From Escherichia coli (GTDB lineage: Bacteria > Pseudomonadota > Gammaproteobacteria > Enterobacterales > Enterobacteriaceae), in the NCBI RefSeq assembly GCF_003018255.1, contig NZ_CP027440.1: a stretch of DNA of 64,000 bases. One strand, written 5' to 3'. The translations under genes and the position numbers were made by a program. The number at the start of each line of letters is the position of its first letter. The stretch's first letter is position 1. Of the stretch, positions 2,139 through 49,561 are shown piece after piece. Under the pieces are notes generated by a model. It saw only the letters and a program-made list of their open reading frames with translations, ran no database searches and had not been told where the DNA came from.

Positions 2139-3104
2139 TCATTCGCCTGCGCGGGGTTGCGATACCACCGTTGTATGCTTACGTAATCCGCCCCAAATAC
2201 GATGACCAATGGCGGAATACATCGCGCCCGCAACCACGACAAACGCACCGAGATAACCTAAAAGGTTTAACATCGGTCTGGCGAAGAAATCGGGCCAGGC
2301 CAGTGATAAAAGATCTGAAAAAAACAGCGTAAACAGTGGGGTGAGCGTAATGATCGCGCTCACCTGCGCTGCCTGCCAGCGAGCCATCGCTTCCGCCAGG
2401 GCGCCATATCCTACCAATGTATTCAGTCCGCAAAAAATTAAACATGCGAGCTGCCAGTGGCTAAGCTGCGCTATCACTCCAGGCTTTGCCAGAGGGAAGA
2501 GCGCAATTGTACATAAAGTGTACAGCAAAAACAGGATCTGCGGTGAGGCCAGTCGACGCAATAAAACCTTTTGCGCCACGCCATAACTCACCCACACCGT
2601 CGCCGCACCGACCCCAAAGATTACTCCCCAGGTGTAATCGGTGAGCTTTGTAAATATCTCGACCAGACTGGTGTTAAAAAACATCACCAGGCCGCTCAGG
2701 AGCATCAATGCCCCTACAACCTGAGTGCTGCGCATTTTCTCTTTCAGGATAAATACGCTGGCAACCATCATGCCAACTGGCGAGAGTTGCCCAATCACCT
2801 GCGAAGCGGTCGGACTCAGGTATTGCAAGGATGAGCTGAACAGGATGAAGTTCCCAAACAGCCCGGCGGTCGCCACTGCCAACAAAATCAACCAGCGTGG
2901 CTTACGAAACACGCGTAATGGCGGCAACCGCTTCTTCACCGCAAGAATGGCACCCAGGCCAATACTCGCCATCAAGAAACGGTAAAACACGATTGTCGGA
3001 GGTTCCATCACCTCCAGCACCTGCTTCATTGCGATTGGCAACGCCCCCCAGCAAATTGCTGTGGTGAGCGCCAAAAGAATGCCAATGCCTGCCTGCTGCT
3101 TCAT
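2139..3104 (-). CDS. yhbE: EamA-family inner membrane transporter YhbE
   Basis: 321 aa hydrophobic multi-pass protein directly downstream of rpmA and upstream of obgE, matching the E. coli arrangement. Confidence 0.85.
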   Translation of the reverse strand: MKQQAGIGILLALTTAICWGALPIAMKQVLEVMEPPTIVFYRFLMASIGLGAILAVKKRLPPLRVFRKPRWLILLAVATAGLFGNFILFSSSLQYLSPTASQVIGQLSPVGMMVASVFILKEKMRSTQVVGALMLLSGLVMFFNTSLVEIFTKLTDYTWGVIFGVGAATVWVSYGVAQKVLLRRLASPQILFLLYTLCTIALFPLAKPGVIAQLSHWQLACLIFCGLNTLVGYGALAEAMARWQAAQVSAIITLTPLFTLFFSDLLSLAWPDFFARPMLNLLGYLGAFVVVAGAMYSAIGHRIWGGLRKHTTVVSQPRAGE

Positions 3105-3175: not shown

Positions 3176-3204
3176 AAAAAGCCCCGCAACGTGTTGCGGG
3201 GCTT
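3176..3204 (-). terminator. Intrinsic terminator downstream of rplU-rpmA
   Basis: Hairpin AAAGCCCCGCAAC-GTGTTGCGGGGCTTT followed on the minus strand by TTTTTACATT. Confidence 0.75.
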
Positions 3205-3230: not shown

Positions 3231-3856
<626 letters not shown>

Positions 3857-4078
3857 TCAGAGTGCGCTATAAATATTCACAATAGGGCGCGAATATTACG
3901 CAAAACGCACGCCTTTGACAAGTGCTACAGTCAATACACGAAGAAAAAAAACACAACTTGTACGGTAACGTTTATCTGTGCCATTTTTTCAGTACAATCA
4001 CCCTATATTCCTAACCATAAACCCTAAGTTGCCTTTGTTCACAGTAAGGTAATCGGGGCGAAAAGCCCGGCTTTTGCG

Positions 4079-40125: not shown

Positions 40126-40764
40126 TTAACTCCGGCCCAGACGCATTTCACGTTCAGCTTCAGTTAAAGAAGCAAGGAAAGAGTCACGCTCAAAGACGCG
40201 GGTCATATAGCCTTTCAGCTCTTTCGCACCCGGGCCGCTGAACTCGATGCCCAGTTGCGGCAGACGCCACAGCAGAGGAGCAAGGTAGCAATCGACCAGG
40301 CTGAACTCATCGCTCAGGAAGTACGGCTTCTGACCGAAGACCGGCGCAATCGCCAGCAGTTCTTCGCGCAGTTGCTTACGTGCGGCATCGGCTTCAGAAG
40401 CTGAACCGTTGATGATGGTGTTCATCAGCGTGTACCAGTCTTTTTCGATGCGATGCATGTACAGACGGCTTTCACCGCGAGCTACCGGGTAAACAGGCAT
40501 CAGTGGCGGATGCGGGAAACGCTCATCCAGATATTCCATAATGATGCGAGATTCCCACAGGGTCAGCTCACGATCCACCAGGGTCGGAACGCTCTGATTC
40601 GGGTTGAGGTCAATCAGATCCTGAGGCGGATTGTCCTTTTCCACGTGTTCGATCTCGAAACTTACACCTTTCTCAGCCAGCACAATGCGGACCTGATGGC
40701 TATAGATGTCAGTAGGACCGGAAAACAGCGTCATTACCGAACGTTTGTTGGCAGCGACAGCCAT
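40126..40764 (-). CDS. sspA: Stringent starvation protein A (GST-like)
   Basis: 212 aa, MAVAANKRSVMTLFSGPTDIYSHQVRIVLAEKGV... Confidence 0.95.
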   Translation of the reverse strand: MAVAANKRSVMTLFSGPTDIYSHQVRIVLAEKGVSFEIEHVEKDNPPQDLIDLNPNQSVPTLVDRELTLWESRIIMEYLDERFPHPPLMPVYPVARGESRLYMHRIEKDWYTLMNTIINGSASEADAARKQLREELLAIAPVFGQKPYFLSDEFSLVDCYLAPLLWRLPQLGIEFSGPGAKELKGYMTRVFERDSFLASLTEAEREMRLGRS

Positions 40765-41100
40765 GAAAACCTCCAGGTATAGTCAGAATTTTTACTGCTA
40801 CCAGCCACCAGGTGGCCAGTCAGAAGTTGTGTTACCCAGTAAGGAACGACTCTCTTTGTTCGAAAATCAAACAAAAAATGAGCAATACCCGACATTTGGG
40901 CAGAAAATTGGATGATAGTTTACCAGATTTTGCGACCTTTGTGGTGAGTCGATGCCGGAAATGGGGAAAAAGAGATGCGCTTTAGTCTGAAATAGTTGAC
41001 TTAGTCCCTTATTGGCGATGTGGTTTTTGTTTTACCTGTCTGTCAGGTGGCAGCAAAAAGCAACTTCCCATTTTTTACGCTGATGCAGATTTTAGCCATA

Positions 41101-41126
41101 AAAAAACCCGCCGAAGCGGGTTTTTT
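41101..41126 (-). terminator. Intrinsic terminator downstream of rplM-rpsI
   Basis: AAAAAACCCGCCGAAGCGGGTTTTTT: hairpin with U-tract on the minus strand, 33 bp after the rpsI stop. Confidence 0.8.
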
Positions 41127-41158
41127 CGCAAATTGTTTTCTGCCGGAGCAGAAGCCAA

Positions 41159-41554
<396 letters not shown>

Positions 41555-41566
41555 CTATAATCCCGA

Positions 41567-42082
<516 letters not shown>

Positions 42083-42213
42083 CTACCCCTTCGAATAGCC
42101 TATGCCAGCACACAAAAAGTTTTGGGAAAAAAACTTTCTTGTAACGTGGGGTCGCAGGATTATAGAGAAGTCGGGGTCAAAGATCGACCCCTTTTTGTGA
42201 TTTGTGGCAGGTT

Positions 42214-43341
42214 TTAACCCGCCAAATGCTCGCGCTTCAGATACTCTTCGCTTTGCATCTCTTGCAGACGTGACAGGCAACGCTGGAACTCAAATTTCAG
42301 CCGCTCGCCCTGATAAATGTCATATAGCGGCACTTCTGCACTCACCACTAATTTGACATGGCGCTCGTAAAACTCATCCACCAGCGCAATAAAACGTCGC
42401 GCTTCGCTCTCCATCAACCGCGTCATAACTGGTACATCAAACAACATGACTGTGTGAAAGAGGCGTGAGAGCGCAATATAGTCATGCTGACTGCGGGCGT
42501 CGACGCACAGCGTAGTAAAAGAGACCGCCAGCGTCTGGTTCTCGACGCCCATTGTCGCCAGCGGCCGATGGTTGATTTCTAATGTCGGTGAATTTTCTCG
42601 TTTCGCCCCCGCCAGCGCCAACCATAGTTTATCCATTTGCGCCCGGGTTTCATCGTTGAGGGGCGAAAGCCACAGATGCGCCTGAGTGAGTGTACGCAGT
42701 CGATAATCAACACCAGCGTCCACGTTCATTACATCACAATGCTGTTTAATGGCATCGATTGCAGGCAAAAAACGCGCACGTTGTAGGCCATTTCGATAAA
42801 GTTCGTCCGGCGGAATATTTGACGTCGCTACCAGGGTAATACCGCGGGCGAACAGGGCTTTCATCAGACCGCCAAGTAGCATGGCATCGGTAATATCAGA
42901 AACAAAAAATTCGTCAAAACAGAGCACGTCAGTTTCTGCTTTAAAGCGATCGGCAATAATTTCCAGCGGATCGGTCTGCCCCTGCAAAGCAGTTAGCTCT
43001 TCATGTACCCGCAGCATAAAACGGTGAAAGTGCAGACGCTGTTTCCGCTCTCCCGGCAGGCTTTGATAGAAAAGGTCCATCAGCCAGGTTTTCCCGCGTC
43101 CTACACCGCCCCACATATATAAGCCACGCACTGGCGTATGCTTTGTGTCTTCGCGTTTACCCCACAGCTTACCGACCCGCGCCATTAGCCCACTCGTCCT
43201 GGGGGCTGGAGGCGTGCTATTGATGAGTTCCTGATAAATAATTTCCAGGCGGCTGACGGCCTCTTTTTGAACGTCGTCGGGTTGATGGCTGCCTTCATTG
43301 AGCGCCTTCAGGTATTGCGATGTTGGGGTAACGCTTTGCAT
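42214..43341 (-). CDS. zapE: Cell division ATPase ZapE (YhcM, AFG1-like)
   Basis: 375 aa; Walker A GGVGRGKTWLMD. Confidence 0.9.
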   Translation of the reverse strand: MQSVTPTSQYLKALNEGSHQPDDVQKEAVSRLEIIYQELINSTPPAPRTSGLMARVGKLWGKREDTKHTPVRGLYMWGGVGRGKTWLMDLFYQSLPGERKQRLHFHRFMLRVHEELTALQGQTDPLEIIADRFKAETDVLCFDEFFVSDITDAMLLGGLMKALFARGITLVATSNIPPDELYRNGLQRARFLPAIDAIKQHCDVMNVDAGVDYRLRTLTQAHLWLSPLNDETRAQMDKLWLALAGAKRENSPTLEINHRPLATMGVENQTLAVSFTTLCVDARSQHDYIALSRLFHTVMLFDVPVMTRLMESEARRFIALVDEFYERHVKLVVSAEVPLYDIYQGERLKFEFQRCLSRLQEMQSEEYLKREHLAG

Positions 43342-43534
43342 GATCTTATTGTTATTCCTTGAATAATCGGTGCGCCGTTGTTCACGGTTGACGAAAAAAA
43401 GGCCGTTCTACACTACGCGATATGCAGTCGGGATTCCACTTCTGTGGAATTAACGGTTATAGTGGCATAATCAGCCGCAGGCATGGAGCCTGAAGCCAAC
43501 ACCCTACGGAAACAAAAGACAACGGGAGATGTTC

Positions 43535-43933
43535 ATGACCTGGGAATATGCGCTAATTGGGTTAGTCGTCGGCATCATTATTGGTGCTGTGGCCATGCGT
43601 TTTGGTAATCGTAAACTACGCCAGCAACAGGCGTTGCAGTACGAACTGGAAAAGAATAAAGCTGAACTGGACGAGTATCGCGAAGAGCTGGTTAGCCACT
43701 TTGCCCGCAGCGCGGAATTACTGGATACCATGGCGCACGACTATCGCCAGCTGTATCAACACATGGCGAAAAGCTCCAGCAGCCTGCTGCCGGAACTGTC
43801 TGCTGAAGCAAACCCGTTCCGTAATCGTCTGGCAGAGTCTGAAGCCAGCAACGATCAGGCACCGGTGCAAATGCCTCGCGACTATTCTGAAGGCGCATCC
43901 GGCCTACTGCGTACTGGCGCGAAGCGCGACTAA
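43535..43933 (+). CDS. zapG: Inner membrane protein ZapG (YhcB, DUF1043)
   Basis: True start MTWEYALIGLVVGIIIGAVAMRFG (ATG at 43535), 132 aa; N-terminal transmembrane helix then coiled coil. Confidence 0.88.
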   Translation: MTWEYALIGLVVGIIIGAVAMRFGNRKLRQQQALQYELEKNKAELDEYREELVSHFARSAELLDTMAHDYRQLYQHMAKSSSSLLPELSAEANPFRNRLAESEASNDQAPVQMPRDYSEGASGLLRTGAKRD

Positions 43934-44086
43934 TTTATTTTTCGGGCGCAGCCATTGCGCCCTCCTCTTCTCTCCCTCCCCGACTATCATTTAATCTGGT
44001 GTCTCATTGTTAGCCGTCTGAAAATTCAATAACATCAAACTGTTTTGAATCTCTTTTCTTATCATTCAGGTACGAGAGTAGGAATA

Positions 44087-45454
44087 ATGAAAAAACAAAC
44101 CCAGCTGTTGAGTGCATTAGCGTTAAGTGTCGGGTTAACTCTCTCGGCGTCATTTCAGGCCGTTGCGTCGATTCCAGGCCAGGTTGCCGATCAGGCCCCT
44201 CTCCCCAGTCTGGCCCCAATGCTGGAAAAAGTGCTTCCGGCAGTGGTGAGCGTACGGGTGGAAGGAACGGCCAGTCAGGGACAGAAAATCCCGGAAGAAT
44301 TCAAAAAGTTTTTTGGTGATGATTTACCGGATCAACCGGCACAACCCTTCGAAGGTTTAGGCTCCGGTGTCATCATCAACGCCAGTAAAGGCTATGTGCT
44401 GACTAACAACCATGTGATTAATCAGGCACAGAAAATCAGTATTCAGCTCAATGATGGGCGCGAGTTTGATGCAAAACTGATTGGTAGCGATGACCAGAGC
44501 GATATCGCCCTGTTGCAAATTCAAAACCCGAGCAAATTAACGCAAATCGCTATTGCCGACTCCGATAAATTGCGCGTCGGTGATTTTGCCGTGGCGGTCG
44601 GTAACCCATTTGGCCTTGGGCAAACCGCCACCTCTGGCATTGTTTCCGCATTAGGCCGCAGTGGGTTGAATCTTGAAGGTCTGGAAAACTTTATCCAGAC
44701 AGATGCTTCCATTAACCGCGGTAACTCCGGCGGTGCACTGTTAAATCTTAACGGTGAGTTAATTGGCATCAACACGGCAATCCTTGCGCCTGGTGGCGGG
44801 AGCGTCGGGATTGGATTTGCCATCCCCAGTAATATGGCGCGAACACTGGCGCAGCAGCTTATCGACTTTGGTGAAATCAAACGCGGTCTGTTAGGCATCA
44901 AAGGCACAGAGATGAGTGCCGATATCGCCAAAGCCTTCAACCTTGACGTGCAGCGTGGCGCGTTTGTCAGCGAAGTGTTGCCAGGTTCTGGCTCGGCAAA
45001 AGCGGGCGTCAAAGCGGGCGATATTATTACCAGCCTCAACGGCAAACCGCTGAATAGCTTTGCTGAGTTGCGCTCTCGTATCGCAACCACCGAGCCGGGC
45101 ACGAAAGTGAAGCTTGGCCTGCTGCGTAACGGCAAACCACTGGAAGTAGAAGTGACGCTCGATACCAGCACCTCTTCGTCGGCCAGCGCTGAAATGATCA
45201 CGCCAGCGCTTGAAGGTGCAACGTTGAGCGATGGTCAGCTAAAAGATGGCGGCAAAGGTATTAAGATCGATGAGGTTGTCAAAGGAAGCCCAGCTGCTCA
45301 GGCAGGCTTGCAAAAAGACGATGTGATCATTGGCGTCAACCGCGATCGGGTGAACTCGATTGCTGAAATGCGTAAAGTGCTGGCGGCAAAACCGGCCATC
45401 ATCGCCCTGCAAATTGTACGCGGCAATGAAAGCATCTATCTGCTGATGCGTTAA
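44087..45454 (+). CDS. degQ: Periplasmic serine endoprotease DegQ (HtrA family, two PDZ domains)
   Basis: True start MKKQTQLLSALALSVGLTLSASFQAVA (signal peptide; ATG at 44087), 455 aa; catalytic GNSGGAL. Confidence 0.93.
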   Translation: MKKQTQLLSALALSVGLTLSASFQAVASIPGQVADQAPLPSLAPMLEKVLPAVVSVRVEGTASQGQKIPEEFKKFFGDDLPDQPAQPFEGLGSGVIINASKGYVLTNNHVINQAQKISIQLNDGREFDAKLIGSDDQSDIALLQIQNPSKLTQIAIADSDKLRVGDFAVAVGNPFGLGQTATSGIVSALGRSGLNLEGLENFIQTDASINRGNSGGALLNLNGELIGINTAILAPGGGSVGIGFAIPSNMARTLAQQLIDFGEIKRGLLGIKGTEMSADIAKAFNLDVQRGAFVSEVLPGSGSAKAGVKAGDIITSLNGKPLNSFAELRSRIATTEPGTKVKLGLLRNGKPLEVEVTLDTSTSSSASAEMITPALEGATLSDGQLKDGGKGIKIDEVVKGSPAAQAGLQKDDVIIGVNRDRVNSIAEMRKVLAAKPAIIALQIVRGNESIYLLMR

Positions 45455-46629: not shown

Positions 46630-46657
46630 AAAACCGGAGTCTGTGCTCCGGTTTTTT
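46630..46657. terminator. Bidirectional intrinsic terminator between convergent degS and mdh
   Basis: AAAACCGGAGTCTGTGCTCCGGTTTTTT with an A-run upstream. Confidence 0.8.
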
Positions 46658-49533: not shown

Positions 49534-49561
49534 AAAAACCGACGCTTCGGGCGTCGGTTTT
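49534..49561 (-). terminator. Intrinsic terminator after aaeB (end of the aaeXAB operon)
   Basis: AAAAAACCGACGCTTCGGGCGTCGGTTTT: hairpin with U-tract when read on the minus strand. Confidence 0.75.

Follow-up and report, generated by a model that had tools for sequence, protein, structure and literature searches.

The terminator-like hairpin between zapE and rplM of Escherichia coli is probably a wrong-strand reading of the upstream half of the rplM-rpsI promoter

The zapE-rplM intergenic region and its hairpin

The window, by which we mean the whole 64-kb stretch of DNA analysed here, comes from Escherichia coli, and the 311 nt surrounding the hairpin described below are found at 95% identity or more in 5,425 of 5,426 complete genomes of this species. 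The genes of the region follow the order sspB-sspA-rpsI-rplM-zapE on the minus strand, then yhcB(zapG)-degQ on the plus strand. Window positions in this region correspond to the MG1655 coordinate minus 3,336,656; the hairpin region of K-12 MG1655 is identical to that of the window, the sole difference being a G/A at 42207, outside the hairpin. The features between and around the two genes are as follows.

41567-41995, minus strand: rplM, with its ATG at 41995
41996-42152, minus strand: rplM 5' UTR, which is the autoregulatory leader for uL13 and holds the hp3 attenuator; it does not include the hairpin
42173-42191, no strand assigned: inverted repeat GGGGTC-N7-GACCCC (the hairpin), covering -21 to -39 of the rplM promoter
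42205-42224, minus strand: second stem-loop, UGGCGGGU-UAAA-ACCUGCCA, folded from the 3' region of zapE around the stop codon of this gene
42214-43341, minus strand: coding sequence of zapE (yhcM); in the minus-strand direction, the hairpin follows 22 nt downstream of its stop codon

On the plus strand, the hairpin reads GGGGTC (42173-42178), AAAGATC (42179-42185) and GACCCC (42186-42191), and is directly followed by TTTTT at 42192-42196 and then by GTGATTTG. The original prediction had described GGGGTC-AAAGATC-GACCCC-TTTTT at 42173-42196 between zapE and rplM, and the sequence is exactly as claimed. It had also pointed out that both neighbouring genes are on the minus strand and that the hairpin has no U-tract on that strand; the sequence bears out both points, the minus-strand tail being GACUUCUCUAUAAU. 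A plus-strand terminator scan retrieves the hairpin as a stem of 6 pairs (5 G-C) that closes a 7-nt loop, followed by UUUUUGUG, so that on this strand it possesses the U-rich tract immediately after a G+C-rich stem that is typical of an intrinsic terminator. A scan of positions 40500-44500 against Rfam at E <= 1 gave no match at the hairpin.

Folding of the plus-strand RNA yields -11.4 kcal/mol (z = -1.35; 6 bp, 7-nt loop). The minus-strand fold is stronger, with -12.7 kcal/mol and 8 pairs including G-U (z = -2.0 to -2.4), because two extra G-U/A-U pairs reduce the loop to 3 nt. This difference favours a second reading, possible but doubtful in our view, in which the stem-loop acts in the sense of zapE, on the minus strand, as a 3' structure of the zapE mRNA that would terminate weakly, induce pausing or hold back 3'-5' exonucleases once transcription has ended through Rho or has read through. 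Such a role is compatible with one in the rplM promoter, and the two are not mutually exclusive. The hairpin is stable, lacks a U-tract and begins 22 nt past the zapE stop codon, and in being a stable stem-loop on the sense strand shortly past a stop codon it resembles the U-tract-less protective stem-loops which end Rho-dependent transcripts (PMC6061677). It differs from them in that no zapE 3' end has been mapped at the hairpin and in that its stem overlaps an active promoter. Moreover, the zapE stop codon already sits within another stem-loop, of 8 bp, and the tail GACUUCUCU makes a poor U-tract.

Position of the hairpin in the rplM-rpsI promoter

The promoter of rplM-rpsI is already known and mapped. 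The rplM 5' UTR is 157 nt long (PMC10931766) and, counted from the ATG at 41995, this length places +1 at 42152. Published primers for the point at which rplM mRNA begins agree with a +1 at 42152/3 (PMC6736130), and SMRT-Cappable-seq has delivered a unit on the reverse strand, 3377753-3378803, with both rplM and rpsI in it (PMC6131387). The start of this unit is 5 nt further downstream than 42152, hence likewise downstream of the hairpin; an artefact at the 5'-terminal ACCCC may account for the offset. Measured directly against the mapped start, the elements of the promoter fall at the following positions.

42152, minus strand: rplM-rpsI transcription start (A; one published primer uses the adjacent G at 42153 as well), from the 157-nt UTR, the primers and SMRT-Cappable-seq
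42164..42159 (-12..-7), minus strand: TATAAT, -10 hexamer of the rplM-rpsI promoter, from sequence and conservation
42187..42182 (-35..-30), minus strand: TCGATC, putative -35 hexamer, from its distance of 17 bp upstream of the -10 and from conservation
42192-42196 (-40 to -44), minus strand: A5 (T5 on the plus strand), candidate UP-like A/T tract, from sequence and conservation

TATAAT is thus found 6-7 nt upstream of an experimentally mapped start, where the -10 element of a sigma-70 promoter is expected. A minus-strand TATAAT next to the hairpin had been put forward as a probable element of the rplM promoter; its presence is confirmed and its role as the rplM -10 element, with a mapped start at 42152/3, is supported, but it occupies 42164..42159 and not 42160-42165. 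The putative -35 hexamer TCGATC is weak, matching TTGACA at 3 of 6 positions, and is separated from the -10 by 17 bp. It takes up the hairpin loop together with a portion of the 5' arm (5' arm and loop read GGGGTCGATCTTT), while the 3' arm GACCCC sits at -26..-21, inside the 17-bp spacer. Another candidate for the -35 hexamer, TTGACC at -28..-23 in the 3' arm, was rejected, being only 10 bp from the -10 and not conserved.

The proximal UP subsite is said to range from -46 to -38, as reportedly given by Estrem et al. 1999. In the window, -46..-38 reads ACAAAAAGG, which matches the consensus AAAAAARNR of this subsite (PMC4132738) at 8 of 9 positions. The promoter may be compared with the sigma-70 promoters of rRNA and ribosomal-protein genes, of the rrnB P1 type with UP element and control by ppGpp/DksA. 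It shares with them a consensus TATAAT and a 17-bp spacer, as well as a G+C-rich discriminator, CCTGCG, and the A-tract at -44..-40 with its 8/9 match to the proximal subsite; transcription of rplM-rpsI is reportedly under negative stringent control (PMC10931766). Unlike the rrnB P1 type, it has a weak -35 (TCGATC) and no good distal UP subsite, -57..-47 being TGCCACAAATC.

The same coordinates settle the proposal that the hairpin is part of the L13 autoregulatory leader. Proximity, and the recurrence of the arm sequence GACCCC at the 5' end of the leader, are all that speak for it, but the 157-nt leader starts at 42152 and the hairpin, at -21 to -39, lies 21-39 nt upstream of that start, where it is not transcribed from the rplM promoter and stays outside the rplM mRNA. 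The proposal is refuted on these grounds, and we leave it practically no chance of being right.

Conservation in Enterobacteriaceae and in more distant Enterobacterales

A ZapE scan provided 80 loci from distinct species, of which 77 contained the promoter block, in 58 distinct 70-nt sequences. The block is 90% identical overall, whereas zapE coding DNA differs between species by a median of 23%, and identity of this level despite the divergence of zapE indicates that the block is under strong constraint. Within E. coli, identity over a 60-nt block does not fall below 95% in any of the 5,425 genomes, which makes variation in this population uninformative.

The conservation pattern across species was observed directly. 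Mean identity to the consensus reaches 0.98 in the 5' arm, 0.98 in the loop, 0.99 at -20..-13 and 0.99 in the -10 element, and falls to 0.82 in the 3' arm, the lowest value in the core promoter. The putative -35 hexamer TCGATC is invariant in the 58 sequences at five of its six positions, with T or C at -31, and TATAAT is also invariant at five of six, with A at -8 in 54 of 58. All variation in the stem is one-sided and confined to the 3' arm; none of the 8 stem pairs is altered on both sides in any of the 77 loci and 58 sequences, and hence no compensatory change was found there. GACCCC is the majority state of the 3' arm (24/58), the six Watson-Crick pairs of the plus-strand stem are kept in only 24 of the 58 sequences, and the T5 run in only 18. 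The tail of Enterobacter is TAAATG, and the arm of Salmonella is GACCTG, with a broken stem and a fold of about -5 kcal/mol.

At -44..-40, A or T is present in 98-100% of the 58 sequences, but the share of A at -43, -42 and -41 is only 50%, 67% and 60%. Free switching between A and T at -43 to -41 points to a constraint on A/T content and not on a run of U. A pattern of this kind would suit an element of the alpha-CTD/UP type, or a curvature element, rather than a U-tract. In genera with 50-190 nt of extra G+C-rich repeats after zapE, the block adjoins the rplM promoter and not the zapE stop codon. As read from these alignments, constraint tracks the anatomy of the promoter and not that of the hairpin.

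If the stem acts at the level of RNA at all, several features of the same alignments favour the zapE sense. Replacement of C by T in the 3' arm preserves G-U pairing on the minus strand only, and all six pairs are kept in 35 of the 58 sequences on the minus strand versus 24 on the plus strand. Among species with a short spacer, 33 of 35 have a minus-strand hairpin of -10 kcal/mol or lower, versus 16 of 43 among those with a structured insert after zapE. When genomes are grouped by zapE nucleotide distance into 33 clusters, the figures are 10 of 12 clusters with a short intergenic region versus 7 of 21 with an insert (p = 0.01), although this association is not a formal phylogenetic test; the plus strand lacks any association with short spacers (p = 0.7). 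Additionally, a Citrobacter lineage (L013, L014) that lost GACCCC has gained, in the minus-strand RNA, an alternative GUCGAC/GUCGAC stem at -13.0 kcal/mol. Against an action in the zapE sense stand the absence of compensatory change in any pair and the loss of the stem in distant Enterobacterales, including Lonsdalea, whose intergenic region is short.

Since the ZapE protein search reached only relatives with at least 87% identity, distant taxa were approached through L13 homologues and their contigs, which gave eight loci (Yersinia, Serratia, Lonsdalea, Morganella, Providencia, Budvicia, Enterobacillus and Sodalis). In seven of them zapE lies directly upstream of rplM. The eighth, Budvicia, has a transporter gene (Na_sulph_symp/CitMHS families) at this place.

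All eight distant loci keep TCGAT(C/T)TTT, YTCTATAAT and GCGACCCCACG. An A5-A7 tract is kept in six, all of them without the hairpin, and ends 4 nt before TCGAT in five of the six, as in E. coli, and 2 nt before it in Lonsdalea; Morganella and Providencia have T-rich sequence in its place. The segments corresponding to the two arms are changed, at -39..-36 in six of the eight (CAGT, GCGT, CAGG, CCGG or AAGG) and at -26..-21 in all eight (AACGTC, GTGAGC, GAGGTC, CCTGCC, GATGTC and others), with no compensation between the two sets of changes in these taxa, and plus-strand folds range from 0 to -8 kcal/mol. Retention of the A-tract without an adjacent hairpin is strong evidence that the tract is a promoter element and not the tail of a terminator.

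These data also bear on the idea that GGGGTC-N7-GACCCC serves a dimeric DNA-binding protein as an operator that overlaps the -35. A 6-N7-6 dyad over the -35 hexamer has the geometry of many repressor operators, and conservation of the blocks -39..-27 and -20..-13 exceeds what a promoter spacer usually requires. The 3' half-site, however, varies more than any other part of the core promoter, distant Enterobacterales lack the dyad while retaining the remainder of the promoter, and no reported regulator was found for the hairpin site. We regard an operator at this place as very improbable.

Plus-strand transcription and the origin of the terminator look

Curated 3' ends from the Term-seq of Adams et al. 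are available for E. coli grown in LB to OD 0.4, in LB to OD 2.0 and in M63 (PMC7815308). None of the three conditions lists a 3' end on either strand between MG1655 3378723 and 3380163 (PMC7815308), the lists jumping from 3378723(-) or 3378595(-) to 3380163(+) or 3380623(+). The end at 3378723(-), window position 42067, is the known attenuator of the rplM leader, 72 nt upstream of the ATG. As these lists apply thresholds and the libraries are size-selected, a rare RNA or one of about 27 nt could be missed. No Rho-termination region was found at 33788xx, 33789xx or 33790xx (PMC7815308), and no forward-strand unit ending at 33788xx in the SMRT-Cappable-seq table (PMC6131387). A simple promoter scan detected no plus-strand promoter-like site between 40783 and 42454, and the supplements of TERMITe, of ROSE and of a paper on bidirectional promoters offered no useful match.

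The original prediction had suggested that the hairpin terminates antisense transcription or is where a plus-strand transcript missing from the annotation ends. Neither suggestion is supported: a plus-strand promoter-like site was not detected, stem and T-run are not conserved as such, and, with the thresholds of the lists in mind, Term-seq shows no end here. The 3'-end mapping that had been proposed as a check is thus provided by the published Term-seq, which, within the same thresholds, contains no plus-strand end at the site, the outcome named beforehand as refuting the prediction. The absence of zapE 3' ends from the curated lists also counts against an action of the stem-loop in the zapE sense, although zapE may be below the thresholds.

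The frequency of such motifs depends on the criteria applied. Under loose criteria, 6 terminator-like sites are found in 4 kb versus 4.3 +/- 2.1 expected, and they are not commoner than chance. Strict criteria, which ask for a perfect stem of 6 bp or more with no fewer than 5 G-C pairs, a 3-8-nt loop and T5 within 1 nt, give 8 distinct sites in the real 64-kb window, the hairpin among them, versus 0.05 in dinucleotide shuffles, both strands together. A hairpin with T5 is unlikely to arise by chance at any single place; at 0.05 per 64 kb, however, some 3-4 chance sites are expected in a genome of 4.6 Mb, so that a single orphan site is unremarkable.

It remains to weigh a working plus-strand intrinsic terminator, maintained in Escherichia, that would stop antisense or divergent transcription before it reaches zapE. 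Its anatomy is canonical (6 bp with 5 G-C pairs, U5 straight after the stem), it is rare by chance under the strict criteria, and it is the same in K-12 MG1655, within the 60-nt block conserved at 95% identity or more in 5,425 E. coli genomes. GATTAT at 42158-42163 on the plus strand, opposite the rplM -10, has A at position 2 and T at position 6, and a divergent start near 42170 is conceivable from this sequence. On the other side, no plus-strand 3' end is listed in the three Term-seq conditions, no SMRT-Cappable-seq plus-strand unit ends at 33788xx, and the 1.4 kb upstream contain no plus-strand promoter-like site. Moreover, stem and U-tract are unconserved in Salmonella, Enterobacter, Kosakonia, Yersinia and Serratia, a divergent start would have a poor -35 region (TTTCTT), and the short stem with its 7-nt loop predicts moderate strength only. 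A maintained terminator is unlikely on this balance.

Quite improbable, too, is a more specific scenario in which the near-symmetric rplM -10 would occasionally give rise to a divergent plus-strand start near 42170, with an RNA ended by the hairpin and U5 after about 27 nt. Were it true, the hairpin would be a built-in early terminator shielding zapE from antisense RNA of a very strong ribosomal-protein promoter.

Comparison with known elements leads back to the promoter. With canonical intrinsic (Rho-independent) terminators, the hairpin shares a G+C-rich stem-loop and five U on the plus strand; in contrast to them, it has no upstream plus-strand unit, no mapped 3' end and no conservation of stem and U-tract, and it is situated inside a promoter. 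Bidirectional terminators, such as those at degS/mdh and of rpsI, resemble it in that an A-tract before a hairpin gives a terminator face on the other strand, but the present hairpin has a U-tract on one face only, and its neighbours are co-directional, not convergent.

We consider that the motif is probably what one sees when the upstream half of the rplM-rpsI sigma-70 promoter is read on the opposite, wrong strand, and that its terminator look is most likely an ordinary by-product of promoter sequence. The apparent U-tract, T5, would be the A5 at -44..-40, a UP-like element just upstream of the -35 which, to judge from its sequence alone, may contact the alpha C-terminal domain of RNA polymerase or shape the DNA. 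The 5' arm and the loop would be conserved as the carrier of TCGATC, which we infer to be the -35 hexamer. The 3' arm, lying in the spacer, would drift freely and, in Escherichia and some relatives, would be complementary to -39..-34 by chance. A dyad arising in this way beside the A-tract would present itself as a plus-strand intrinsic terminator.

A polymerase arriving on the plus strand, from the rplM side, would probably be stopped by the motif, but selection maintaining it as a terminator is not supported, and there is no known plus-strand RNA whose end lies here. A lineage-specific function of the hairpin is possible, given that GACCCC is the majority state and that the sequence is conserved in E. 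coli. Nothing at the site falls outside known kinds of element, and the motif carries little biological weight, the DNA being an already mapped promoter and the terminator look an A-tract beside a short dyad.

The other strict sites of the window resemble real terminators. One, at 46634-46651, lies between the convergent degS and mdh and scores on both strands, and another, at 49539-49557, directly follows the stop codon of a minus-strand gene. The rpsI terminator hairpin (41106-41121) counts as a strict site on either strand even though it is flanked by minus-strand genes on both sides; it scores as a plus-strand terminator because an A-tract precedes the hairpin, and this case shows that terminator look-alikes on the wrong strand are ordinary. 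For genome scans, a caution follows that a hairpin with a T-run opposite to all neighbouring genes has two possible origins, namely a UP-like A-tract beside a stem, or an A-tract of the kind often found ahead of a genuine terminator, rpsI being an example. The only Rfam matches in 40500-44500 were weak ones, below gathering scores, around this rpsI terminator.

The rplM promoter and leader

The plus-strand hairpin between the minus-strand genes zapE and rplM overlaps the rplM promoter, whose positions are counted here on the minus strand from the rplM-rpsI start site (+1 = 42152).

Sequence elements of the rplM promoter
42165-42172 and 42182-42188, promoter -20..-13 and -36..-30: dyad and spacer region
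42165-42172, promoter -20..-13: spacer segment GACTTCTC
42173-42178 (-26..-21) and 42148-42153 (-1..+5), minus strand: the two GACCCC copies

The spacer segment GACTTCTC equals the -10 hexamer in its invariance, an uncommon property for a promoter spacer. Wherever position -22 is T, namely in 13 of the 58 distinct Enterobacteriaceae promoter-block sequences and in Yersinia, Budvicia and Sodalis, a conserved 5-bp dyad is formed by GTCGA (-36..-32) and TCGAC (-22..-18). The inferred -35 hexamer, TCGATC, contains a Dam methylation site (GATC, 42182-42185). This site reads GATC in 49/58 distinct Enterobacteriaceae sequences and GACC in the other nine (9/58), and the corresponding position is GATT in Lonsdalea, Morganella and Providencia.

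The 3'-arm sequence of the hairpin, GACCCC, is directly repeated at the rplM transcription start on the minus strand, and in RNA reading through from zapE the 5' arm (GGGGUC) could pair alternatively with each copy. Further along the leader, Term-seq places a very strong minus-strand 3' end at 42067 (MG1655 3378723), with the rplM ATG 72 nt downstream, and this end matches the SrmB-sensitive premature terminator (hp3) of the rplM leader (PMC6736130). On the opposite strand, a 55-amino acid ORF with a TTG start (42050-42217, plus) lies antisense to the leader and promoter and ends just beyond the hairpin; this ORF is without support and probably spurious.

The zapE end of the spacer

Features between zapE and the rplM promoter block
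42205-42224, minus: 8-bp stem-loop UGGCGGGU-UAAA-ACCUGCCA
~3626-3800 (locus coordinates), between the zapE stop and the promoter block: repeat inserts in loci L028, L034, L047, L050, L054, L057, L062 and others

The zapE stop codon sits in the loop of the first of these features, enclosed by its stem. Position 42207 differs between the window and K-12 MG1655 (G/A), changing one G-C pair of this stem to G-U with the stem kept.

A G+C-rich repeat (...CCCTCTCCCCGTGGGAGAGGGGCTGGGGGTGAGGGCACCAGACCGCAC...) is inserted after zapE in Enterobacter, Leclercia, Kluyvera, Phytobacter and others, in one to three copies arranged in tandem, and these inserts lengthen the zapE-rplM spacer from 218 nt up to 403 nt. 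We take the repeat to resemble BoxC-type enterobacterial intergenic repeats.

Other terminator-like sites in the window

41106-41121: rpsI terminator hairpin ACCCGC-N4-GCGGGT, T-runs on both strands
3182-3201, minus: strict terminator-like site (perfect stem of ≥6 bp with ≥5 G-C pairs, 3-8-nt loop, T5 within 1 nt), CCCCGCAACACGTTGCGGGG then CTTTTT

Because its T-runs lie on both strands, the rpsI terminator also scores as a plus-strand terminator, lying between the minus-strand genes rpsI and sspA. Weak Rfam matches (STnc370, RsmY, isrK and others), below gathering scores, all fall on this hairpin. The site at 3182-3201 precedes the start of a minus-strand ORF (2139-3104) and faces a divergent plus-strand ORF (3458-4027); it may act as a leader or attenuator, or else as the terminator of an orphan small RNA.
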